Below, in pieces: positions 57 to 34,788 of a stretch of 34,788 bases of DNA. This DNA is from Candidatus Woesearchaeota archaeon. Its GTDB lineage: Archaea; Nanobdellota; Nanobdellia; Pacearchaeales; GW2011-AR1. The stretch lies in the NCBI GenBank assembly GCA_964365195.1, contig CAYIPM010000001.1:1-34788 (forward strand), in the 5' to 3' direction. Below the pieces are notes generated by a model. The model saw nothing but the letters and a program-made list of their open reading frames with translations, ran no database searches and was not told where the DNA came from. Position 1 is the stretch's first letter. Each line of letters opens with the position of its first letter. Both the position numbers and the translations under genes were made by a program.

Positions 57-107
57 TATAGTGAAAGACATACAAATATGGTAAAAAGCTTATGTCTTTT
101 ACTATAG
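57..107. repeat. TATAG-bounded hairpin unit
   Basis: TATAGTGAAAGACATA ... TATGTCTTTTACTATAG forms an imperfect ~16-bp stem. Same design as the family B/C/D hairpins elsewhere in the window. Confidence 0.5.
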
Positions 108-310: not shown

Positions 311-383
311 TATAGTGAAAGACTCGCGTCTTTCCCTATCTAGTCAACGACAAACTGAGGAAAAATAAAGGTCGTTGACTATA
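311..383 (+). repeat. Double-hairpin repeat, family B (short form)
   Basis: TATAGTGAAAGACTCGCGTCTTTCCCTAT hairpin followed by TAGTCAACGAC..GTCGTTGACTA hairpin. Copies at 2953, 5273, 9443 and 33483. Confidence 0.75.
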
Positions 384-2952: not shown

Positions 2953-3078
2953 TATAGTGAAAGAATCGCGTCTTTCCCTATCTAGTCAACAAAAACAAAA
3001 AGCATTTACTATTTTATAATAATTTGAAAATGCTTTTTGTTTGATAAACTGGGGGAAATATTAAAGTCGTTGACTATA
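2953..3078 (+). repeat. Double-hairpin repeat, family B (long form with nested inner hairpin)
   Basis: Nearly identical to 5273..5397. The second hairpin carries an inner inverted repeat ACAAAAAGCATTT..AAATGCTTTTTGT. Confidence 0.8.
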
Positions 3079-4592: not shown

Positions 4593-4714
4593 ACGCGAAA
4601 CATTTTTCTAGAAAAGCGCAGATGGAGCCATTTTTAAAATGGATTTTATGGATTATTTTTTTTCTCATATTATTGATGGGGCTTTATTTTTTATTGCAGA
4701 GAATGGGAATATAG
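4589..4714 (+). CDS. Very small membrane protein, class III signal-like (RKAQ/MEPF..)
   Basis: Own translation: MNAKHFSRKAQMEPFLKWILWIIFFLILLMGLYFLLQRMGI, 41 aa. Its ATG overlaps the stop of the upstream gene. Confidence 0.35.
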   Translation: MNAKHFSRKAQMEPFLKWILWIIFFLILLMGLYFLLQRMGI

Positions 4715-5056
4715 AGAGTTTTGAAAAACCTCAATTTCAAAACTTTCTATAGAGAATCTTGCAAAATTATCAAAATTCTCTAAGAAGAAGTTTGAAACGC
4801 TGAAATTTACAACTATTGGACGTTGTAAATTTCAGAATCCTATTTATTCAAACTTCTCTATAGAAAAAGACTTACGTCTTTTTCTAATAAGCTATAGGAA
4901 ATAACATTAATTTTCGTACTTTTATTTGTTATTTCCTATCTCTCCAAACAAAATGTTTGTAGACAACGACAAACGAAAAAAATTAATGTCGTTGGCTATA
5001 AGAAGGACTTTGACGCGATTTCCTTCGGAAATGTGGGTTATTCAAAGTCCTCTATA
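4711..5056. repeat. Tandem array of 5-6 different hairpin units joined at (C)TATAG junctions (families D, B' and C plus unique units)
   Basis: Consecutive inverted repeats: AGAGAGTTTTGA..TCAAAACTTTCT, AGAGAAT..ATTCTCT, AGAAGTTTGAA..TTCAAACTTCT (inner CTGAAATTTACAAC/GTTGTAAATTTCAG), AAAAAGAC..GTCTTTTT, CAACGAC..GTCGTTG, GGACTTTGA..TCAAAGTCC. Units recur at 9106..9202 and 33322..33555. Confidence 0.75.
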
Positions 5057-5115: not shown

Positions 5116-5235
5116 CCGCCCACCACCCACCTGAAGCGGTTTTGTTTTATCGACGATATATGTAAAGATTGGTTTTGATTGACAGTTCAAAATATATTTT
5201 TAAGACAGAACAAAACCAATTAAGCGGAGATACTG
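5116..5235 (+). repeat. Family A element copy (C-rich tract plus 3' arm)
   Basis: CCGCCCACCACCCACCTGAAGCGGTTTTGTTTTATCGACG...GCGGAGATACTG. Overlaps the sequence of copies 8455..8662, 34733..34788 and 1..54. Confidence 0.7.
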
Positions 5236-5272: not shown

Positions 5273-5397
5273 TATAGTGAAAGACTCGCGTCTTTCCCTA
5301 TCTAGTCAACAAAAACAAAAAGTATTTACTATTTTATAATAATTTGAAAATGCTTTTTATTTGACAAACTGGGAAAATGCCAAAGTCGTTGACTATA
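5273..5397 (+). repeat. Double-hairpin repeat, family B (long form)
   Basis: Near-identical to 2953..3078. Ends 3 nt before the ATG at 5401. Confidence 0.8.
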
Positions 5398-8454: not shown

Positions 8455-8662
8455 CAGTATCTCCGCACAGACTTTTGCCCCGCCACCTTCCGCTCACCAT
8501 CTCACAATTCTATTTTGCTATTTTTATTCAATTTGCCAAAATAAAATTGTTCGCCCACCCACGCTGTTTTGTTTTATCGACGATATATGTAAAGATTGGT
8601 TTTGATTGACAGTTCAAAATATATTTTTAAGACAGAACAAAACCGCTTATGCGGAGATACTG
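8455..8662 (+). repeat. Full-length family A element with 12-bp terminal inverted repeats
   Basis: CAGTATCTCCGC (8455..8466) pairs with GCGGAGATACTG (8651..8662). There is an internal C-rich tract and an inner stem GTTTTGTT/AACAAAAC. This copy carries an extra ~70-nt internal insert compared with the version implied by 34733.. plus 5116... Confidence 0.75.
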
Positions 8663-9105: not shown

Positions 9106-9202
9106 TATAGAGAGTTTTGAATAACCTCAATCTTAAAACTCTCTAAGAAGGACTTTGAAGAGATTTCCTTCGGAAATTGGGGTTATTCAAAGTCCTCTAT
9201 AG
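9106..9202. repeat. Hairpin units, family D plus family C
   Basis: Same units as 4711..4752/5003..5056 and 33322..33363/33433..33485. The inner ATTTCC-TTCG-GGAAAT stem-loop is conserved. Confidence 0.75.
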
Positions 9203-9442
9203 TAATTATCATTATCGCGGATCAGAGTGTTTTGCATTAAGATGTCAATGGAATCCGACGGCATAATTTAAATATTCAATTCTTTTTGTTGTATTATGGA
9301 CTATTCATTTGGTGATAAGCGAAAATCGAAAAATGACAAGCGAGCAAAAGCCAGATATAATCGCTATAAGAAGGGCGGCGGAAAAACCACGCGCAGTCAA
9401 GACCCAAAAAAATATTAATTTGATTCTTGGACAATTTCAGGT

Positions 9443-9514
9443 TATAGTGAAAGAATCGCGTCTTTCCCTAATAAATCAACGACAAAATGGTCAAAAATTA
9501 ATGTCGTTGATTAT
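9443..9514 (+). repeat. Double-hairpin repeat, family B (short form)
   Basis: TATAGTGAAAGAATCGCGTCTTTCCCTAATAAATCAACGAC...GTCGTTGATTAT. Confidence 0.75.
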
Positions 9515-14319: not shown

Positions 14320-17300
14320 ATGAAAAAAAAAGAAGCGAGTGATGTGGAGAAAAAAAAGAGACATGAACAATATAATTTGATAATGATTTTTTTAATTATC
14401 TTAGTTGGAGTTGTGGTTATTTTTGCTGCGTACACCATTTCAACATTCTCTTCAAGCGAATCAATCGATACCAACGTCACCCAAGAAAATAATTTTTCGC
14501 ATCTGACAATTAACAATGATGTTGCGCCTTACAATAGTTTAGTGTTGTATATGTCGTTTGATGAGAATTTTTCAAGATATGCAAATGTTTCATATGATTA
14601 TTCGGCGAATGGGAATGACGGAAGATTTATATTTAATAATGGAACGAGTAAATATAATTCGACTGGATTGTATGGAGGAATGGTTAGTTTTGATAATGAT
14701 GGAGATTATATTAATGTGAGTACTGCAAATAATTTAGATTTTGGATTATCTCCTTTTGCAATTAGTATGTGGGTATTAGCAGGTGATCCTACTGATAACT
14801 TAGACGGATTTCTTTCTAAAGATAATTATGCAGGAGGTACTACTTATGTTGGGTATCTCTTAAATATTCAAGCAGGTCCTCGTTGTAGTTTTGAAACGAG
14901 AAATATTACTGGTGGCGTTGGTCCTGATTCGAGGGTATTTAGCATAGCCACAATTTCAAGTAATGTCTGGACACATATCGTCGCTGTGAGAAATGCAACC
15001 TCTCCTGCAGCATTGCAAATTTTTGTCAACGGAGTGCTTGATAATTATACTATTGAATCGAGTGCAACAAATGTTACTAATAATGCGTCGCTTACATTAG
15101 GTGTTATTAATTCTTTCACACCCCTGCAATTCTTCAACGGTTCCATCGACGAAGTCATGATATTTAATTCTTCATTAAATTCTAGCGAGATATTAAAAAT
15201 ATATCAAAATCAATCTAGCAGATTTAAAAATCCTGGCAAGCAGGAATTAAAAGCATTTAATACGACGCTGACAGCTGGCTGGATTCGTGTGCAGGAAGAG
15301 GATCAGCAATTATTCAGCACTAATTTGACAAAACGAATTGGACAATGGAATGTTAGCAAAGGATACAAAGATTGGGATTTCACAGCGAATACGTATGGAA
15401 GTTTTGATGGGGTGAATGATTATGTGGATTTGGGAAATACTCTGCCCTTTGATTTTAATACTCCATTTACCATTTCTGCATGGATTAAGCATTCTATGAC
15501 TTCAAGTATTAATTTTATTAGTAAGCAAGAAAATTCTGGTAACTATAGAGGTTATGGATTAGGAACGGCTGTTAGTGGTAAATATGAGTTCTTTATTTAC
15601 AACAATGGAGGAATTACAGTTGATGCTTCTGCCAATCACAATGATGGCCAATGGCGCCATGTGTTATTTACATATTCGGGAAATAGTGATGCAAATGGAG
15701 TCACTTTTTATCTCGATGGCAACCCAGCCGCGTCTACCATCGTGACAAACACTTCTGTAGCTAGCATTCTAACTACGGCTTCATTGCAATTAAATGGTCG
15801 TGCCGGAGCGAATAATTTATTTGCTGGCTCCATAGACGAAGTCCGCATTTACAACCGAAGCTTGAATGCAACAGATATTTTAGAAATTAATGCATCGGGT
15901 AGAAGTGCAAATGCTTCAATAAATTCAACAGGGTTAGTTTTATGGATGCCATTTGCGGAAGATGGATATGTGAATGATAAGGTATTAGTTGCGGATAGAA
16001 GTGGATTAAATAATGATGGTGTGCGAAATAACGGAACAGATTATGGTGGGGAAAATTTAGTGAATGGCTCTTTAGTTTTGTATATGCATTTTGATAATAT
16101 CTCGACAGTAGGAGAGAATGATACGCTTGTTAAGGATTGGAGTGGGAGGGGGAATAATGGGACTGCTTTCAATGGTGTGCGGGTGAATACGACTGGAAAA
16201 TATGGGGGAGCGATGACGTTTGATGGGGTGGATGATTATGTGAATGTAACCCATAATAGTATATTTAATATTAATAATAGCATAACTCTTTCTGCATGGG
16301 TGAAAACCATTGATGGAACTAGTAATTATATTATAACAAAAAATGAGGATTCTTGGTTTCTCGCTATTGGTGCTGATGCTTCAACAACAAATAAGTTTTC
16401 ATTCTTTTTAACTCCTTTTTCTTTAGTGTGGTTAGGAAGTAGTTCTGATATAAATGATGGAATATGGCATCATGTTGTAGGGACATATAATGGTTCAGTT
16501 AAGAGTGTATTTGTTGATGGAATACAAGAAAATAGTACGAATATAACTGGGGCAATTGGTACAGGTGCATCTTCCGTACTAATAGGACATCGCCCTCTTT
16601 TAAGTGCTTATTTCAACGGCTCCATCGACGAAGTCATGATATTCAACCGTTCGCTTTCAGCATCGGAGATTACAAAATTGTATATAAAAGGTCGAGCAAA
16701 ATTCAACTATACTGATTATCAGCATACAAGCAATGAATATTTACGAGTAGATAAAGATTCAACGATGTGCATACTTGATTATAGATTTAATGCAACTAAT
16801 TATACTAATCCGTTTTATACGCCGTTATTGTTTACGAGTTCAGCAAACCCTTTGAATATCAGCGATGATACTATTTCACCAAGTGTTATAATAAATGCAC
16901 CAGCAAATGCAACTATAGGCACACGAAATATAACATTTAATATAACTGCAACAGATGGGGCTGTTGTTGATAATTGCACGTATTCCATAGATACTATTAT
17001 TAATGTTTCATTAACAAATTCAGTTGCAAATGATTATACTCATACCAATTCATCTTTAGGAGAAGGTTCTCATACAGCAAGATTCTATTGCGCAGATGCC
17101 TCAAATAATATAAATAACACAGAAACGAGAACTTTTTATGTTGATGCTCCGCCCTTAATTACTATTACATTTCCAACAAATAACTCTTTTTATAATTATA
17201 ATGTTTCAGTCATTAATTACACATACTCTGAAATTAATCCAGGCAGTTGTTGGTATTCTACTGATAAGGGATTTACTAATTCATCGACTGTTGCAATGGG

Positions 17301-26300: not shown

Positions 26301-29300
26301 TAAATCTTTCTCACTACAACCGATACCAGATGTTTACAATGACTTTGAAAATGGCGAAGAAATTTATTTCTTGGATTCAGAAAATAATCCTGTTTTAGTT
26401 AAGAGCATTGAAAAAATTCCTTATTCAGGAAAAATATATGATGTTGATGTGAAGAATGATATTGTGCTGGTCCGCCGCGCGGACAGCGACGGGAATTCTG
26501 TTGCAGTGTGGAGCGGGAATAGTAATAATGGGACACTGATTCGAGCTGGAACTAATAAACCTGTTATAAATACTACCTTCTGTAAATATGGCAATTGCAT
26601 GACGTTTCATGACTTGAATGATTCATTGAATGCATCGACTGGAGTGGGGCTACTTTTAGGAAATGGCTCAACAAATTTTTCAATAAGTTTGTGGTATTAT
26701 GAAAGTGTTAATAATGAAAATAAAGGATTAGTGTGGTTTCGTCCAGCAAATCAAGATAGAAGTGTTTCACTTTTTAGACAATCAAATAAAGTAATTGCAA
26801 CTCTCAATGATTTAAGTGTAGTTATGAGATCAAATACGACGGTGACACAGAATCAGTGGTATCATGTTGTATTAACCTATGATGGCAGTGTTGCTTCTTT
26901 ATTTCTTCAAGGAGTCATTGATAATACTACTATATATTCTACTCCTGTTAATTTTTCAGGATCTAGTTTTATCGTGGGAACATATTATAGTTTAGTAGAT
27001 AGTAGTTCTTTCAACGGCTCTATCGATGAAGTTGGTGTTTGGAACAGAAGTCTTTCACGAGAAGAAATCAAACAACTCTATCAATCTCGCTTGAAAAAAT
27101 TGGTTTCGGCAAACGGCGGCGTGAATGACACGTACTTGCAGATGGTGAATTCTTCGACGGCTGGAAATTTCACGGTGAATTTGCGTTCAGATAACATGAG
27201 CTATTGGAATGTTGCTCTTAATCAAAGCGGGCTTGTATTGGGATTGCGGCAAAGTTATAATTATAATATGAGCGCGACAGATAGAGCAAACACCATAAAT
27301 AATTCTGGATTGCGCACGGTGTTTGGCAATTCTAAGCCAGAATTTATCAGTGTGGGTTATGTTGCTAATGATAGTGAGGGAGTTGATCCATCGACGATAA
27401 TTGTGGTGACAGTTAATGTAACTGATGTTGATAGTAATTTTGATACGGCGATTTTACAATGGAAAAATATGAGCCAGATCTGGACAAATGTGACAATGGT
27501 GAATATAACTGCAAAGGGAGTGTACACGATGGTGAATACAAGTTTTACCACACCTGCGTATGATACTAATGTTACGTTTCGAATTTTTGCGAATGACACC
27601 TTAGGTGATTCTAATTTTTCCCTTAATTATACTTTGAATAGCTCGTATGATTGCACCTGGGCCGCAACGGCGGATTTAGGCGCTATTGCCGGCTGGGACG
27701 AAAATAAACGCGTCGGAAATATTTCCATTAATAATACGGGAGATTCAGCGTTTGTAACTGCAAATTGTTCGCTTGATTTTCGTTTGAATTATAATTTGGC
27801 AGAAGGAAGAATTTATTTTAATCAAGATTATGTGAAACCGTCGAATACTATCACGCTGTCTGCAAAACAAAATACGAGCATTGTGGTGAATGCAAGCTTT
27901 TTATCAGAAATTAAAGAAGAAAGTGTTAACATTACTGTTGATGAATTTCGCTCACGATCCAATATGACTGAAATTAATACAACATTGACTCTTGTTTCAA
28001 ATCAGGCAGGGCCGTATTTATATCAGAAAATAGCTGCAGCACCGACATCGATTGATTTACAATCAGGCAATAATTTCAGCTTGCAAGGATACATTCGAAA
28101 TTTAATGGGAACACTGACGGCAAATGTAACTAATAGCGCGTATAACGTTAGTTTTAATTGGAGTGTTCCTAGTGGCTTTACCAATTTATCCGGCGAGCTT
28201 GAAGTGAGTTTAGTTAATATGACCAATAACAGTTTAATTTATAATAATGTGAATGTGAGTTTTAGTAGTCTTGCGTCGATGACTGATGGTGTTAAAACAT
28301 TTTATTTGTATGCACAGGGATATAATATCACTGGCGGAGCAATTAAAGATGCGTTGAATAATACATTATTAACGCAGCAAATGAATATTACTTTCCTTTG
28401 CTATGCCACGAGTGATTCTGTTTGTGTTACGGATTGCGGCAGCACGCAGGATCCTGATTGCTCTGCTGCGGGTTCATCGTCGAGCTCGTCTTCGGGCAGC
28501 GGCGGCGGAGGGGGCAGCTCTACGAAAAAAGAGGAAAAATCAGAAGCAACTTTTGAATTATTGCGTGGAAAAAATCAGGAATTTATTTTACCCATCACTA
28601 ATAAACTTACTAGCTCAAAAGAAAACATTGTTATCAGTGTGAGCGGGCTTAATGCGCAGTACATACAAATAATTCCTGATCATCTTGACTTTATTGCATC
28701 GGGCAGCTCGCGTGATGTTCGGGTCAAAATCACTGCGCCGGATTATTTTGTTGCAGGCACCTATACATTGACATTTTTTATTAGCGGTGATTTAGTTTTT
28801 AACGGCAGCCGCACGCAGTTTTCTGAACGCAAATTTGTGACTCTTTATGTAATTGAAATGTCGCGCGATGAAGCCGACGAGTTTTTAAGGAATGCTGAAA
28901 AATTAGTTGATGAAATGAAAAAAGCAGGCATGATTGTTGATAAAGCAGATGCATTATTTTCTGCAATAGAAGAAACTCATGCCGCAGTTAATTTTTTAGA
29001 GATGAAGAATCATTATGAACAACTCAAGGAAATTCACGACGCTGCATTTGCTTCTTTAAAAATTATCACCGATCTTAATGAAAAGATACAACAGGCAGAA
29101 AAACAGGGAATTGATGTAAGTGAAACTAAAAAATTATTTTATGTTGCTCAGGCAGCGTATAGCCGCGGTGATTATATCCTCGCGATTAAGCAGCTTAAAG
29201 AAGCGCAATTAAGCTATGCCCTTGAAACAAAAGGAGAATTTAATGTTTTGTATGCCATCAAAAATAATCCGGGAAAATCTGCCGCAGGTTTTCTTTTAGC

Positions 29301-29787
29301 TTTATTAATTGGATTTGGCTCTTCTTTTGCAGTGCGACTGCATATCTATAAATCCAAATTAAAATATTTAAGAGAAGAAGAAAAATTATTGCTTGGTCTG
29401 ATGCGCGCGGTGCAGATTGAATGTTTCCAGAATAATAAAATGTCAATGGAAGAATATGATCTCGCGATGAATCATTATGAATTAAAATTACGGGAGACTA
29501 TCGAGGATAAAATTAGAATTGAGACACAACTTGCGAGCTTGTTTAAAATAGGCGGCAGAAAAAAAGCGCTGTTTGAAGAACGAAAGCGGCTTATTGAGAT
29601 GATTAAGAAAGCGCAGAGTGATTATCTTAAAGAAGGAAGCCTTGAAACGCGCGTGTATGAAAATATGCTGAAATCGTATTCTTCCCGCTTGTCTGAAGTT
29701 GAAGAACACATTGCGACACTGGACGCCTCTGAAGCGCTGGAAGAAAATAAATTTATTAAAAAAATCTTAGCGAGGTTTGGATTATGA
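14320..29787 (+). CDS. Giant (5155 aa) surface protein: N-terminal signal anchor, 8 LamG/Laminin_G_3-like repeats, Ig-like modules, Ser/Gly linker, coiled coil, C-terminal TM anchor; interrupted by three intein-like elements
   Basis: Single open frame. The motif (N/A)(G/A)(S/T)(I/M)DEVxhaN(R/S/K)(S/T)h, where h = hydrophobic and a = aromatic (Y/F/W), recurs 8 times. The domain-start motif D-x-SG-x-G-NNGT...FDG.DDY recurs. N-x-S/T sequons are very frequent. Ser/Gly linker at 28471..28521. TM helix around 29281..29340. Confidence 0.85.
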   Translation: MKKKEASDVEKKKRHEQYNLIMIFLIILVGVVVIFAAYTISTFSSSESIDTNVTQENNFSHLTINNDVAPYNSLVLYMSFDENFSRYANVSYDYSANGNDGRFIFNNGTSKYNSTGLYGGMVSFDNDGDYINVSTANNLDFGLSPFAISMWVLAGDPTDNLDGFLSKDNYAGGTTYVGYLLNIQAGPRCSFETRNITGGVGPDSRVFSIATISSNVWTHIVAVRNATSPAALQIFVNGVLDNYTIESSATNVTNNASLTLGVINSFTPLQFFNGSIDEVMIFNSSLNSSEILKIYQNQSSRFKNPGKQELKAFNTTLTAGWIRVQEEDQQLFSTNLTKRIGQWNVSKGYKDWDFTANTYGSFDGVNDYVDLGNTLPFDFNTPFTISAWIKHSMTSSINFISKQENSGNYRGYGLGTAVSGKYEFFIYNNGGITVDASANHNDGQWRHVLFTYSGNSDANGVTFYLDGNPAASTIVTNTSVASILTTASLQLNGRAGANNLFAGSIDEVRIYNRSLNATDILEINASGRSANASINSTGLVLWMPFAEDGYVNDKVLVADRSGLNNDGVRNNGTDYGGENLVNGSLVLYMHFDNISTVGENDTLVKDWSGRGNNGTAFNGVRVNTTGKYGGAMTFDGVDDYVNVTHNSIFNINNSITLSAWVKTIDGTSNYIITKNEDSWFLAIGADASTTNKFSFFLTPFSLVWLGSSSDINDGIWHHVVGTYNGSVKSVFVDGIQENSTNITGAIGTGASSVLIGHRPLLSAYFNGSIDEVMIFNRSLSASEITKLYIKGRAKFNYTDYQHTSNEYLRVDKDSTMCILDYRFNATNYTNPFYTPLLFTSSANPLNISDDTISPSVIINAPANATIGTRNITFNITATDGAVVDNCTYSIDTIINVSLTNSVANDYTHTNSSLGEGSHTARFYCADASNNINNTETRTFYVDAPPLITITFPTNNSFYNYNVSVINYTYSEINPGSCWYSTDKGFTNSSTVAMGTNFSSVTSLVDANNWTVYCNDSSNRLNSTIVSFVKDLTFPQIDFDSRTPANATVTPNTTVIVNISIVELYPDEIKYNWNGTNFTLMNDSLVLFMNMDNRSSLGENDTLVADVSGYCYDNETEILTLEEVDCGDYLEEIENGNYYVDDENIIIGKRNENLIQDKNYDGSIENEKKKVGSNRIVKPNRLIHDYTYCNDKEYLNISVHLNENVGVAEWLLQPLDTRCPSGFVGSIPTPDGLFENSQKCYIKSWNYFVELDGDEKVMTLDSSTGEKEWQVPTERQEFENNGEMYSIKTIDEEGKEGELVVSEKHRVYTASESFFNSVDTSLVEIPKPMLNNKTSYVHNLQPLDTHNAINSSSFEWFFNNCFAFGNETLYSSKGTNVILLKMSCTNVSNLFSDSFVLDSNSFLCLSNSSLSFKGANKSSWELNTISKISPCEISIRNKMFESRTTVRGIYNNPLLTKSSCIDFLTFSDNSSASFWVNCDSDIISLASVNSSLFENSLSVFDNARSNSFLNTSGISTLIDISAIENSMNTDYKKLSIEDFSLQPVSEMYEEFTNSKEIYFLDSENNPVRVSSIEKIPYSGKMYDVDVENDIVLVRRNNGASKINNQLLKNKSSLLDINPVMMVKIFKNNSITFYRKEKNKTSNLNSFKVTQIMPKILEMHDSNNVHFSNLSYLFLYSEKQRKVFLFEFSQDVVNFRSVYLHNESQNLLNSSTVIDLPDNFLEDFNFSTYFSFNSNSSTGYQSILSQNSWSSNDKVPDCMNFSNIDCFINLITAFDNNSKSNFMELSDLSNISAIKNDKSNGYLSFSIGEFSNLINSGEEEASKRKETNADDSHFEKASSEAFASEETGIWSGNSNNGTGVNGVKVNTTGRYGGAFTFDGKDDVINTTLLFNSTQGTWSAWISVPSFTLEGGFGRRVLHQSDNAGNHEINLNTNDNSRVRWSGYGTSYVWNFNSNETLSTNTWYHIVGTYNGSYAALYLNGQLSNSSTQTGPVGDANRTVAIGRINFQVNGHFNGSIDEVQLWNKSLSSTEIYQLYASNLYKFNQTQWYLTVNQSKNTTNGLDNGTYTYYAYSKDNGGNANMTDVRTITSDTEAPNATLLTPVNNSFVTNGSQNFSANLTDTYGLKNATLNVYPSANNSWLEFDGVDDSVNMGTTGGNVSGNITISVWVFPAATQNDYARIISKENAGGPVNQGWGIEQDFNTINKYYFFWYGSAGGGSGSGSNITSTLVANKWNHFVITLSNSNVIQYVNGVQTNSSTGLGTMVQQPTASLLLGTWFGDTTRFWNGTMDEVRVYNRSINATEVLDIYRSGLLRNPTLNSTGLVSWWDFEQASGTILVDQVGLNNGTINGSTWRNFHRQFFSFASGTTSALVGTVLGLLEGTYNWFYQLFDMAGNIFTSSNFSVTIDTVYPLVSFDSRTPANATTTPNVSVTINISIVEQYLDELKYNWNGTNYTYMNDSLVLLMNFDNRSALGENDTLVADVSGYCYDNETEILTLEEVDCGDYLEEIENGNYYVDDENIIIGKRNENLIQDKNYFDRDQLKNNEKEKEVFDVTPKALLVMQDNVLTDYNNYEINNYINFSVDNHHAEDASEALLVMQQTDTLRLNGLSGSTPDWGDSALENSPTCYVEKWKYFNDLSGTEKVMTLNQKTGEQEWQLPKEKQEFENTGEMYSITTIDEEGNKGELVVSEKHRVYASEGIGIISNVSGNNLIRLPSNSDDFISFNSDSNAVIRSWVLSCGILNHTTENIFSFENFKAFEKCRSLVISTLCSDFENVANDPFESSFGLEIMSYPCSFKNFSSLNFTFSSRKNLTERELDIVTSFKNICGILQSSSNMSLCQRRIILENFIKSHSSPQHFQDLPDHDSGSLKSWSSSTDFTVCNNIGVNFDSHCIMNRQDLYKSFSLQPITAVYKDFENGEDIYFLTEDNTPVLITSIEKVPYSGKMYDVDVKNDIVLVRRADSDGEYGSAVWSGNSNNGTAINGVKVNTTDCKYGNCDTFDGINDYINSTVVSSNINNKTLSAWVKLAYLGQGGGGLVTVQTLDGNIFDSIVYNETGLGWGFGSNVYRRTAWSGLVETSTDWIHIAATYTNGSYVLYRNGIAIVTNTTLSVLNFNSSTAHVVIGRRHTTGGANTYLNASIDEVYVWNRTLSASEVYELYASNLYKFNQTQWYLTVNQSKNTSSGLDNGTYTYYAYSKDNGGNANMTDVRTITSDTEAPNATLLTPVNASFVTNGSQNFSANLTDNLGLKNATLYVYPSANNSWLEFDGVDDVINITRNETLEPTKNLTVSVWIRHTTNTRYVLSKHYDGGASSYAIDVADDNVQFYVRNGTGSSHFRNAISGTATNGNTWHHVVGTVNDSSVAIYVDSVLKASTAITGAIVYNSGNLSIGNFVDTPASFSFNGSIDEVRIYNRTLSSTEITEIYKSGLLRNASINNTGLVSWWDFEQATGTNLVDQVGLNNGTISGATWRNFHRQFFSFSSGTTSALVGTIFGLLDGAYNWFYQLFDYAGNIFTTSNFTTTIDTSAPQIDFVTPTLSNGSAANSDFLVNVTISEQYLSNISWYWNNTRFVYGENFSLVSPENISRGLVLLYNFDNESTYGENDTNVFDFSGYCYDNETEILTLEEVNCGDYLEEIENGDYYVDDGEIIIGKKNENLIQDKNYFDRNQLKNNEKEKATNAASMVTHNFTGYVSNNENKYLNFSFDKTAVGDDPVASVVMRRSNKPNLHGYPGSIPGWSESPTLDNLKNSENKCYIKSWKYFNELSGDEKVMTLDSSTGEKEWQVPTERQEFDEDKEMYEIVMEDANGEESNLVVSEKHRVYFSDFDNNIPFNPKIVNPISFPDSDCLAIMPEPKSTLIAFSGFPNEMYNTSASSSYSHDDLSDFPINSSIVSFYFLTYLNKKQLGQNRLSETALCMQHLDACCLLQESCQTFLSQEENLHLLVEQYKDCLAFPKYYPLGFSSQDDYCTYVSIVFQSVLSEHHSLKKQFSSDYCNKNELYKSFSLQPIPDVYNDFENGEEIYFLDSENNPVLVKSIEKIPYSGKIYDVDVKNDIVLVRRADSDGNSVAVWSGNSNNGTLIRAGTNKPVINTTFCKYGNCMTFHDLNDSLNASTGVGLLLGNGSTNFSISLWYYESVNNENKGLVWFRPANQDRSVSLFRQSNKVIATLNDLSVVMRSNTTVTQNQWYHVVLTYDGSVASLFLQGVIDNTTIYSTPVNFSGSSFIVGTYYSLVDSSSFNGSIDEVGVWNRSLSREEIKQLYQSRLKKLVSANGGVNDTYLQMVNSSTAGNFTVNLRSDNMSYWNVALNQSGLVLGLRQSYNYNMSATDRANTINNSGLRTVFGNSKPEFISVGYVANDSEGVDPSTIIVVTVNVTDVDSNFDTAILQWKNMSQIWTNVTMVNITAKGVYTMVNTSFTTPAYDTNVTFRIFANDTLGDSNFSLNYTLNSSYDCTWAATADLGAIAGWDENKRVGNISINNTGDSAFVTANCSLDFRLNYNLAEGRIYFNQDYVKPSNTITLSAKQNTSIVVNASFLSEIKEESVNITVDEFRSRSNMTEINTTLTLVSNQAGPYLYQKIAAAPTSIDLQSGNNFSLQGYIRNLMGTLTANVTNSAYNVSFNWSVPSGFTNLSGELEVSLVNMTNNSLIYNNVNVSFSSLASMTDGVKTFYLYAQGYNITGGAIKDALNNTLLTQQMNITFLCYATSDSVCVTDCGSTQDPDCSAAGSSSSSSSGSGGGGGSSTKKEEKSEATFELLRGKNQEFILPITNKLTSSKENIVISVSGLNAQYIQIIPDHLDFIASGSSRDVRVKITAPDYFVAGTYTLTFFISGDLVFNGSRTQFSERKFVTLYVIEMSRDEADEFLRNAEKLVDEMKKAGMIVDKADALFSAIEETHAAVNFLEMKNHYEQLKEIHDAAFASLKIITDLNEKIQQAEKQGIDVSETKKLFYVAQAAYSRGDYILAIKQLKEAQLSYALETKGEFNVLYAIKNNPGKSAAGFLLALLIGFGSSFAVRLHIYKSKLKYLREEEKLLLGLMRAVQIECFQNNKMSMEEYDLAMNHYELKLRETIEDKIRIETQLASLFKIGGRKKALFEERKRLIEMIKKAQSDYLKEGSLETRVYENMLKSYSSRLSEVEEHIATLDASEALEENKFIKKILARFGL
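17929..18010 (+). tRNA. tRNA-like cloverleaf 1 (82 nt, long variable arm, anticodon-loop TTGATAC), translated in frame within the intein
   Basis: Acceptor GTCGGGG/CCCTGAC. D arm GCAG-AATGGTTA-TTAC (weak). Anticodon arm ACCGC-TTGATAC-ACGGT. Variable arm GCCC-TTCG-GGGT-TT. T arm GTGGG-TTCGATT-CCCAC. Discriminator G. Confidence 0.55.
18237..18662 (-). CDS. PIN-domain toxin (VapC-like), antisense within intein 1
   Basis: MPLTVVLDSNILFRIL (N-terminal PIN Asp) and a later acidic DEEFIALC. 141 aa. Starts directly after the upstream small ORF. Its stop TAA is the complement of the sense GTT TAT of block B. Confidence 0.65.
   Translation of the reverse strand: MPLTVVLDSNILFRILISQGDILEIVFNSQLDLLAPLKLKEEFERHKKELLSKTKLSEKRFDTFVQLIFKRITFVPLEEYKVSLPKAKQLLKNHSKDEEFIALCVSKGCKLWTYEVLLFNIGFGISTKEVSTELKKLSDAV
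18663..18884 (-). CDS. Putative antitoxin (73 aa, helical, K/E-rich) of the PIN toxin
   Basis: Small ORF abutting the PIN start (0-nt gap). TATA-like element about 26 nt upstream. Confidence 0.5.
   Translation of the reverse strand: MAEISIKVEIPEVFKKEFERALSKTLKEFSNKLELTLAKEIISESQFTQKDADELSEKVKKSMHDDLVKRGLL
18906..18916 (-). promoter_or_regulatory. TATA-box-like element for antisense cassette A
   Basis: The minus strand reads GTTTTTTATAA, centred about 26 nt upstream of the ATG at 18884. Confidence 0.45.
19147..19416 (-). CDS. RelE/ParE-family toxin, antisense within intein 1
   Basis: ILRKLKKKD..QKKITQI...KNLRHDLSNFKRVQIGSFVLLFSVKGDTIIFEDFDHHDRIY follows the RelE/StbE pattern. 89 aa, with 4-nt overlap to the upstream ORF. 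Confidence 0.65.
   Translation of the reverse strand: MKIDTSKIDDILRKLKKKDFPLFFAVQKKITQIAEMNIIAIMHFKNLRHDLSNFKRVQIGSFVLLFSVKGDTIIFEDFDHHDRIYIKKR
19413..19694 (-). CDS. Putative antitoxin (93 aa) of the RelE-like toxin
   Basis: Translationally coupled (ATGA) to the RelE-like gene. TATA-like CTTAAATAA about 26 nt upstream. Confidence 0.45.
   Translation of the reverse strand: MAEMLLKSDNSIKLDFELLSKAVIRLMKQSIFEKFMQSGTLSLDDQEFCDKIDWYPVDEFELKEKYVEKLKSSKKLSGKSMTVDEFNKFCDSL
19716..19724 (-). promoter_or_regulatory. TATA-box-like element for antisense cassette B
   Basis: The minus strand reads CTTAAATAA, centred about 26 nt upstream of the ATG at 19694. Confidence 0.4.
22081..22162 (+). tRNA. tRNA-like cloverleaf 2 (82 nt; the best-formed copy)
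   Basis: Acceptor GCCTCAG/CTGGGGC (7 bp including one T-G). D arm GCAT-TGTTGGTA-ATGC. Anticodon arm GCAGA-CTGATAC-TCTGC. Variable arm GTCT-TAAC-GGAC-TT. T arm TCGGG-TTCGACT-CCCGA. Discriminator G. Confidence 0.6.
22392..22766 (-). CDS. DUF5615 (Mut7-C/PIN-like) toxin, antisense within intein 2
   Basis: From the internal ATG: MSNSRSVKFLRDENVKLRLEKFLKEHGYDI...VLITNDRHF, a typical DUF5615 pattern. The track ORF extends to 22814. Its stop again lies in the complement of block-B GTT TAT. Confidence 0.7.
   Translation of the reverse strand: MSNSRSVKFLRDENVKLRLEKFLKEHGYDIISKPKELSNGSLATFSKSEQRVLITNDRHFSNALKFSKEKIFSVVWLRIPQDKTQLLITAFESLLKEIKSSEFEGNLIKLFPDTFEIIPIPSEA
22744..22983 (-). CDS. DUF433 antitoxin-like protein, antisense within intein 2
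   Basis: INPYIVADSEICGGTPTFKGTRIMVWQILEMLRGGMALNEIFKDYPSLTKAHIAAALQYA matches the DUF433 consensus. Confidence 0.8.
   Translation of the reverse strand: MRVEINPYIVADSEICGGTPTFKGTRIMVWQILEMLRGGMALNEIFKDYPSLTKAHIAAALQYAADILKGSDNVQFPLR
23005..23015 (-). promoter_or_regulatory. TATA box for antisense cassette C
   Basis: The minus strand reads GATTTATATAA, centred about 26 nt upstream of the ATG at 22983. On the sense strand it encodes the conserved LYKS. Confidence 0.5.
25438..25519 (+). tRNA. tRNA-like cloverleaf 3 (82 nt; degenerate anticodon stem)
   Basis: Acceptor GATCCAG/CTGGAGC (6 of 7 bp). D arm GCAT-CAGTGGTA-ATGC. Anticodon arm CAGGT-CTAATAA-ACCGA (only 3 bp). Variable arm ACCT-TCAC-GGGT-AT. 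T arm CCGGG-TTCGATT-CCCGG. Confidence 0.5.
25764..25973 (-). CDS. DUF2283-like small protein (antitoxin-like), antisense within intein 3
   Basis: WEYDEEADVLYISFGKPEKAISVDLGSGIIARQSESGKLIGFTILG matches the DUF2283 pattern. Its stop lies in the complement of block-B GTT TAT. Confidence 0.7.
   Translation of the reverse strand: MEELIGKSDKSSWEYDEEADVLYISFGKPEKAISVDLGSGIIARQSESGKLIGFTILGLKGILLSKSLK
25961..26272 (-). CDS. Putative toxin (about 104 aa, family not recognised) coupled to the DUF2283-like gene
   Basis: From the ATG at 26272 (the track ORF starts at a GTG at 26314). LKHMYNNHPEM...ILETLNNPYIV...GFVLTAFY. 13-nt overlap with the downstream gene. TATA about 28 nt upstream. Confidence 0.4.
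   Translation of the reverse strand: MKIAFSVNGVPIRLTEKQLKHMYNNHPEMKSQEDNILETLNNPYIVQQGDVGSLLAIKKFDKTPVTNNKHLNVAYKELSQTDGFVLTAFYSSKLKNRKILWKN
26296..26306 (-). promoter_or_regulatory. TATA box for antisense cassette D
   Basis: The minus strand reads GATTTATATAA, centred about 28 nt upstream of the ATG at 26272. On the sense strand it encodes LYKS. Confidence 0.5.
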
Positions 29788-33321: not shown

Positions 33322-33555
33322 TATAGAGAGTTTTGAAAAACCTCAATTTCAAAACTCTCTATAGAAAAAGACTTACGTCTTTTTCTAATAAGCCAACGAC
33401 AAACGAAAAAAATTAATGTCGTTGGCTATAAGAAGGACTTTGACGCGATTTCCTTCGGAAATGTGAGTTATTCAAAGTCCTCTATAGTGAAAGAATCGCG
33501 TCTTTCCCTAATAAGCCAACGACAAAACGAGGAAATATAAATGTCGTTGACTATA
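33322..33555. repeat. Contiguous array of four hairpin units (D, B', C, B) joined at CTATAG
   Basis: Each unit matches copies at 4711.., 4859.., 5003../9146.. and 311../9443... The units directly abut one another. Confidence 0.8.
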
Positions 33556-33639: not shown

Positions 33640-33826
33640 CTATCTGGGACAGCAAACTGACGGTATTTGCCGCAAAATTTTTGCTGCGCGCCGACAATTT
33701 CTTATTTTCAAATTGACAACGCAACTCGCAGTTTCATTTTCTTATTTTTATTTATTTGCTAAAATGAAACTGCTCTCTATCGTTATCTCGTTTTTTATTT
33801 TTTAATTTTACTAAAACGAAATAACT
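33640..33826. repeat. Cluster of AT-rich inverted repeats
   Basis: GCAGTTTCATTTT (33728..33740) pairs with AAAATGAAACTGC (33761..33773). GTTATCTCGTTTT pairs with AAAACGAAATAAC (33782..33825). The CAATTT..AAATTG hairpin resembles those at 140..190 and 8520..8555. Confidence 0.55.
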
Positions 33827-34732: not shown

Positions 34733-34788
34733 ACAGTATCTCCGCACAGACTTTTGCCCCGCCACCTTCCGCCCACCACCCACCTGAA
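34733..34788 (+). repeat. 5' part of a family A element (window ends inside it)
   Basis: CAGTATCTCCGCACAGACTTTTGCCCCGCCACCTTCCGCCCACCACCCACCTGAA matches 8455..8496 and then 5116..5136. Confidence 0.7.

Follow-up and report, generated by a model that had tools for sequence, protein, structure and literature searches.

The short hairpin units that occupy intergenic DNA throughout this genome most probably form a superfamily of very small non-autonomous DNA transposons (MITEs) of the IS630/Tc1-mariner kind, a reading to which we assign a probability of about 0.8 and in which the mobilizing enzyme would be a DDE transposase of the IS630/Tc1-mariner type supplied in trans. The element proper extends from TAG to CTA, folding as one or two hairpins, and inserts into a TA dinucleotide with duplication of that TA, so that an integrated copy reads TA-TAG…CTA-TA; the constant TATAG and CTATA borders of the units result from this duplication around a TAG…CTA element. 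Landing is mostly intergenic, often in or beside older elements, after which two abutted elements can be mobile as one composite, and nested landing together with composite mobility gives rise to modular nested arrays.

The window analyzed here (34,788 nt) is one entire contig of a 1.04-Mb assembly made of 214 contigs, with 33.7% G+C, 87% complete and broken at repeats. TBP is encoded in the assembly, sigma-70 region 2 is absent from its encoded proteins, and no rRNA is assembled in the 1.04-Mb genome. A near-identical contig is known from Hainich groundwater, and the contigs that encode the gene beside the array belong to the same strain only (99.8% identity, gap-free). The host is a groundwater DPANN archaeon of the Pacearchaeota/Woesearchaeota type. 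Within a 5155-aa ORF of the window (14320-29787), three tRNA-like genes lie on the + strand at 17929-18010, 22081-22162 and 25438-25519, scoring 50, 41 and 36 bits, respectively, against Rfam tRNA; ARAGORN calls them as tRNA-Ile with a long variable arm.

A preliminary description of this DNA had listed a series of sites with modular hairpin units, and units recur at every one of them, its account being confirmed almost to the base (Table 1). What had to be changed is the assignment of 57..107 to type B, since this copy is a single long hairpin subtype (57-106), and the status of C as a stand-alone unit, since C is never solitary and always forms the right half of a D-C or B′-C composite. The nested extra hairpin that had been noticed in the long forms of B corresponds to a 52-nt hairpin in the 5′ arm of the second hairpin (hp2); the genome holds eight such long copies, and a TA duplication is absent from the 52-nt insert.

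Table 1. Hairpin units and related sites; positions refer to the 34,788-nt window.
Feature	Position	Strand	Description
Single long hairpin	57..106	+	B-type ends TATAGTGAAAGACATA..TATGTCTTTTACTATA
Unit B	311..383	+	73 nt, two hairpins; 13 nt upstream of ATG 397; stems GAAAGAC/GTCTTTC (hp1) and GTCAACGAC/GTCGTTGAC (hp2)
Unit B, long form	2953..3078	+	extra 52-nt hairpin within hp2 5′ arm
Unit D	4710..4751	+	single 42-nt hairpin, TATAGAGAGTTTTGA..TCAAAACTTTCTATA
Dv-Cv composite	4748..4862	+	115 nt, two hairpins, D and C variants
B′ left hairpin	4859..4892	+	TATAGAAAAAGAC-TTAC-GTCTTTTTCTAATAAGC; uninterrupted B′ copy at 33359-33431
Insert E	4893..4963	+	71 nt, nested, splits B′
B′ right hairpin	4964..5000	+	CAACGAC..GTCGTTGGCTATA
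Unit C	5001..5056	+	AGAAGGACTTTGA..ATTTCCTTCGGAAAT..TCAAAGTCCTCTATA; right half of B′-C composite
Unit B, long form	5273..5397	+	
D-C composite	9106..9201	+	two hairpins, about 96 nt
Unit B	9443..9514	+	degenerate right end (..GATTATG)
Array D, B′, C, B	33322..33555	+	D 33322-33363, B′ 33359-33431, C 33431-33486, B 33483-33555
Empty target site	33795..33822	+	..AATTT-TA-CTAAAACG..
Unit H			46 nt, about 24 copies; TATAGCATATGAC…GTCATATGCTATA
Unit J			two hairpins, about 95 nt

The region 4710-5056 consists of hairpin units in a nested array, with TATAG at the start and CTATA at the end of each unit. The Dv-Cv composite occupies the CTATAG junction separating D from B′, and the E insert that splits B′ is built from a J-left-type hairpin and a small CAAACA/TGTTTG hairpin. 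The array at 33322-33555, in which neighboring units overlap by TATA(G), is without both the Dv-Cv composite and insert E, and the two arrays can thus serve as a filled/empty pair. Window positions 33322-33393 represent the empty site for the Dv-Cv composite, while the flanks of E, once joined, equal 33359-33428 with 100% identity and no gap; a TA duplication is absent around E. A second copy of the 115-nt Dv-Cv composite is found in another TATA junction, at C28:6040-6154. Over the whole window, CTATAG is observed 12 times for 4.3 expected, a number reached by none of 100 shuffles.

The units extend beyond the window, as iterated nhmmer models matched 189 B, 62 C, 52 D and 46 E copies across the genome, and 151 hairpins combine a TATAG foot with 12-nt arms, compared to 8-82 for ten control pentamers. 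Unit blocks amount to at least 252 (~240 per Mb) and cover 21,963 bp, i.e. 2.1% of the genome and 11.9% of the intergenic DNA. Since 86 of these blocks are located at most 150 nt from a contig end, spread over 73 of the 214 contigs, the true block number is higher than 252 and assembly fragmentation is in large part due to the repeats. B matches are intergenic in 163 of 189 cases, although coding sequence makes up 85% of the genome and non-coding DNA 15%. The units (42-130 nt, for an element size range of about 40-130 bp) are ORF-free and present in both orientations, with copies that are 90-100% identical in flanks that are unrelated.

Clustering yielded three extra unit types, H, J and X. 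The terminal inverted repeats match at 9 of 11 positions in B (TAGTGAAAGAC vs TAGTCAACGAC), are perfect in D (15/15) and are perfect across 12-15 nt in H and J. Full D copies number 49 genome-wide, with 98.5% canonical pairs in the stem. Each of the 41 full C copies is preceded by D, Dv or B′, which makes D-C a two-hairpin element, like B and J. At G000:C147:167-1160 (L059), mirror-image pairs of units lie on both sides of a secreted-looking gene of 193 aa (X,H - gene - H,X), an arrangement through which this gene might be mobile as a composite transposon; a TFS-like gene (C187) and a FEN-1 gene (C28) are bracketed in a similar way.

Another MITE family, unrelated to the units, is also found in the genome; its inverted ends are 12 bp long (CAGTATCTCCGC…GCGGAGATACTG), and it is present in the window at 1-54, 5116-5235, 8455-8662 and 34734-34788. 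Forty-seven such ends were counted in the genome; the flanking bases are not TA, and the copy at 8455-8662 has TACAGG at either side. B elements have inserted into copies of this family (C103 vs C7).

Mobility was assessed by joining the 35-nt flanks of every unit and searching the genome by BLAST for uninterrupted paralogues, which are available because many units sit inside other repeats. At least 12 independent filled/empty pairs of B type were obtained, in which ..TA.. becomes ..TA-TAG…CTA-TA... Three of them were re-aligned (C83 vs C75, C103 vs C7 and C34 vs window 33795-33822). In the first, CTCAAT-TA-ATTGA within the loop of an H unit is converted to CTCAAT-TA-TAGTCAACG…CACTA-TA-ATTGA; in the last, the locus paralogous to 33795-33822 (C34:2510-2599) is filled by a 90-nt B element between duplicated TA. 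The bases beside TA differ among empty sites, indicating that the target is TA alone. The J::B composite, formed when a B element landed in the J spacer, occurs at five sites with different flanks, while at least seven J copies are without B, from which we conclude that composites move as single elements. Comparison of orthologous intergenic regions also revealed presence/absence differences: in the nearest relative, G001 (84-90% protein identity), the syntenic region lacks both the D-C composite at 9106-9201 and the B unit at 9443-9514 (the site of the latter is on G001:C42). The MITE-like character suggested in the preliminary description is therefore substantiated by the TA duplication in at least 12 pairs, the imperfect inverted ends, the non-coding content, the near-identical copies in unrelated flanks and the absences in G001. 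The interval from the D-C composite to the B unit contains a small, very basic ORF (ATGGACTATTC.., window 9296-9420), which falls outside the list of ORFs of at least 80 aa and is kept in G001.

The same filled/empty pairs are explained equally well by an element ending in TA and inserted after TA, as would occur if the units were of the REP/BIME or IS200/IS605 type, with single-stranded DNA hairpins recognized by a Y1 (HUH) transposase, RAYT or TnpA, and TAG…CTATA pasted 3′ of TA without true duplication. Arrays in both orientations are reminiscent of BIMEs, covariation of the hairpin arms (see below) is expected for a structure read single-stranded, and the genome contains five Y1_Tnp matches, with no TnpB. 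However, IS200/IS605 elements have no inverted ends, carry subterminal hairpins and insert 3′ of a fixed 4-5-nt target, whereas the units have true inverted ends, and their empty sites keep TA alone constant with variable bases at its sides. IS608-type enzymes recognize their target through guide pairing, for which a 2-nt target is too short. In addition, the Y1 genes bear their own G+C-rich end hairpins, unlike the units; a TATAG hairpin was found near none of 11 Y1 loci of relatives; and the co-occurrence of Y1 genes and repeats is weak among 48 congeners (11 with both, 9 with repeats only, 8 with Y1 only, 20 with neither). We consider mobilization by a Y1 enzyme quite unlikely.

As for the Y1-related genes of this genome, a 261-aa Y1-transposase-like gene (35 bits; G000:C145:1597-2382, L029:1276-2061) is flanked and followed by GTGAAGGACCGTCCTTCAC hairpins and resembles a RAYT accompanied by a small REP of its own; AGGACSGTCCT sites number only 8 in the genome. 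IS200-like elements are present at G000:C5:50-400, C54:3828-4163 and C111:1171-1428, and their G+C-rich right end is conserved (..CCGCGCGCACGCGGATTTTTTGCCGCAGCAAAAAACC..GGAGGATGTCA). Of the three genes, two are broken, by TAG and by expansion of a GAATT repeat, and the one on C111 has an H unit at a TATA in its 5′ part.

The TA duplication points to an IS630-type transposase. Neither a TATAG-ended transposon nor an intact IS630-type gene was found in this assembly, which contains a 39-residue remnant of a DDE_3 gene at G000:C12:58-174. Among the relatives, G063 (Pacearchaeota RIFCSPHIGHO2_01_FULL_37_14) holds B units together with two intact IS630-like copies, whose homology begins with TATAGATAAC and ends with GTTATCTATA. 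IS630-like transposons of 1.1 kb with ends TA-TAGATAAC…GTTATCTA-TA are thus present in G063, and also in aquifer metagenomes: a metagenome scan gave 424 relatives of the G063 transposase, about 25 of the 35 close relatives inspected have TA-TAGATAAYTGCG ends, and a 1099-nt contig from the Hainich aquifer (17x coverage) is exactly one element with such ends. The other IS630-like elements of the order begin with GAATCC.., ATTATT.. or AATAAT.. after TA, which makes the TAG tip specific to the TATAG-ended clade. The ends of these insertion sequences match the units over TA+TAG(A) alone, their inner binding sites being different, and a DDE_3 gene is present in only 2 of the 17 genomes of the order sample that bear the first B hairpin (hp1). 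The connection of the TATAG-ended IS630 clade to the units, which we draw from the comparison of end sequences, is thus circumstantial; a partner transposon would share the unit ends TAGTGAAAGAC, TAGAGAGTTTTGA or TAGCATATGAC.

Other candidate partners were discarded. An rve (IS481-like) transposase present in five copies has an unrelated end (..ATAACACA), and the D unit adjoining it is coincidental. The IS630-like gene of the congener G038 is single copy, with ends TTAAGTACACTAA.. that are not TATAG. Long elements bounded by unit ends were not retained either, as the genes found between inverted units are ordinary (TFS-like, FEN-1, secreted protein). In 65 foreign loci, the distance from hp1 to the right end is almost always at most 135 nt.

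The array junctions depart from simple insertion. Adjacent units share a CTATAG junction, as the preliminary description had it, with an overlap in TATA where they touch. CTATAG is present 324 times in the genome, 180 of them in the non-coding 15%, and CTATATAG 6 times; abutted units always display CTATAG and almost never CTATATAG. Plain nested insertion with TA duplication, which predicts CTATATAG or CTATATA, fails to account for this rule, and extra TA repeats at one side of abutted units were not seen. Our guess is that the CTATAG junctions arise by microhomology-mediated collapse, deletion or recombination between TATA(G) ends.

The second misfit is found in the hairpin arms. When 68 distinct B copies drawn from many genomes are compared, the internal and terminal arms of hp2 show covariation, with compensatory changes in 5 of 11 pairs and a stem that is 92% canonical; compensatory cells number 19, compared to at most 4 when the partner is slid. 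The 7-bp stem of hp1 is invariant, with loops that are mostly NNAA. Within subfamilies, covariation was uninformative because the copies are too similar. A transposase that reads double-stranded DNA ends has no need of hp2 arm covariation, which could come from homogenization of palindrome arms, from a single-stranded intermediate or from an RNA role. Taken together, the CTATAG rule and the arm covariation leave a small chance for something less ordinary, namely that the modules act single-stranded, being moved or kept by an agent other than a resident IS630 transposase, or that they were recruited as RNA or DNA structure modules shaping expression in a genome with hardly any classical regulators. 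The agent could be an enzyme provided by the host cell or by a virus of these episymbiotic archaea, or a hairpin-specific nuclease, and the CTA-TAG sharing would then reflect the chemistry of that enzyme. We regard this reading as unlikely.

Compensatory changes that keep the stems, along with the NNAA loops of hp1, are also what arrays functioning as RNA would display. The units would then be leader or trailer stem-loops or small RNAs, transcribed with their neighbors or from their own TATA-like ends and involved in stability, termination or processing at CUAUAG, mobility being merely the means of their spread. Units lie on the same strand as neighboring genes more frequently than on the opposite one, 79:56 in this genome and 73:47 in other genomes. 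Some copies stop 10-20 nt upstream of a ribosome-binding site and start codon, and these individual copies must therefore be transcribed in leaders. D stems read on the D-to-C strand contain more G·T than A·C mismatches, although in copies that are not independent. On the other hand, 40% of the copies are antisense to their neighbors, and a ~60% same-strand bias is mild, typical of selection against harmful orientations and unlike that of a cis-acting RNA. There is no excess of copies beside start codons, and copies of one subfamily resemble each other too closely to reveal selection on structure. Most congeners carry 0-3 copies, so a conserved host function is not required. A search of Rfam 15 gave no family at the gathering threshold, the best unit matches being mir-3047 (30 bits for a threshold of 53) and SraG (29 bits for a threshold of 50). 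We hold a primary RNA function to be very unlikely, and the processed multi-hairpin RNA raised in the preliminary description is disfavored by the ~60% same-strand proportion and by the patchy occurrence of the units among genomes. The possibility that the terminal TATA of a unit serves as a downstream promoter was dismissed separately, as starts are not enriched at a promoter-like distance.

The distribution across genomes was examined with the exact hp1 module of B, the most conserved module, which 17 of the 401 sampled genomes of the order carry, as do 11 of its 153 genera; a reversed-pattern control gave 0 in all 401 genomes. Copy numbers are 54 in the present genome, then 19, 18, 18, 5, 4 and at most 3. 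Some match to a 234-nt query is found in 20 of 48 congeners. A scan of one genome per species returned at least 65 matching stretches, nearly all in MAGs labeled Pacearchaeota, Woesearchaeota or Nanoarchaeota, from Rifle, Californian groundwater, Lac Pavin, Hainich and other sites; no match was found in the viral contigs searched for units. A B unit is also present on L083 (CAYYJP010000012.1) and L110 (CAYNXO010000029.1), which belong to bins named, one, 'uncultured Gammaproteobacteria bacterium' and, the other, 'Candidatus Undinarchaeota'; this reflects either mis-binning or spread past the Pacearchaeota group. Such a patchy distribution is at odds with a host function inherited vertically, and the patchy, burst-like pattern fits selfish DNA rather than a housekeeping RNA. 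Across species, the unit is 85-95% identical, compared to 76-90% for conserved proteins. This conservation exceeds that of neutral intergenic DNA and fits a mobile element whose sequence is constrained, or one transferred from lineage to lineage.

With respect to their hosts, the genomes of DPANN archaea are among the smallest and most streamlined of any cells, and hairpin elements fill one-eighth of the intergenic DNA in this one, after a recent burst to more than 250 blocks in one lineage; sister species have almost none. A third of the contigs end in these elements, which thereby disrupt metagenome assemblies and bias MAG completeness. Neighboring genes may be affected as well, as TATA-containing hairpins are put beside promoters and start codons. 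Most carriers are without a visible cognate transposase, which offers an entry to non-autonomous mobilization in episymbionts, and the TATAG-ended IS630 clade is a practical handle on that question. The known workings of such elements are not altered by these findings.

IS630/Tc1-mariner-derived (Stowaway-like) MITEs include Sulfolobus SM1 with ISC1048, pneumococcal RUP, enterobacterial MITEEc1/ERIC and cyanobacterial Nezha. Like them, the units are small, non-coding, multicopy, intergenic and nested, with inverted ends and a TA duplication, and relatives contain an IS630-type transposon whose terminal bases match. They differ in being much shorter (down to 42 bp) and composed of one or two near-perfect hairpins, in forming many unit families that have only the TA-TAG tip in common and overlap by CTATAG when abutted, and in their hosts, ~1-Mb DPANN archaea mostly without an assembled transposase gene. 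By end sequence, the nearest look-alikes are probably the Correia elements (CREE) of Neisseria, the likeness being limited to the TATAG tip and the TA duplication. Correia elements measure 100-150 bp, begin their inverted ends with TATAG, duplicate TA, are intergenic in hundreds of copies and can fold as RNA hairpins. They make up one family, in which the ends are 26 bp long, and have promoter, IHF and RNase III features. They are not known to form modular arrays, unlike the units, and their sequence is probably unrelated to that of the units past the TATAG tip.

REPs make no target duplication. REP/BIME systems with RAYT consist of short extragenic palindromes with a GTAG or CGTC foot tag, organized in mosaic arrays (PMC2817692, PMC3733652). 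The REP/BIME likeness put forward in the preliminary description holds for the appearance of the units, which are palindromes with a conserved foot tag, here TATAG, clustered as mosaics in both orientations; it does not extend to the mechanism, as no RAYT/Y1 association was found and the units have a TA duplication and inverted-repeat ends. In Anabaena, TATAGGA…TCCTATA palindromes host REP dimers (PMC3733652), and these palindromes may be a similar TA-MITE. According to an automated census of prokaryotic MITEs, a 'Woesearchaea' genome is among the MITE-richest archaea, with 105 per Mb (PMC11602168), with which the ~240 blocks per Mb found here agree. Its main text contains no description of the unit families, the TA duplication, the modular arrays or the TATAG-ended IS630 clade, and our literature search, which included the unit sequences, returned no account of the families, their modular grammar or this clade. 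Set against these known systems, the elements are selfish DNA of an ordinary kind, and it is the host that is unusual.
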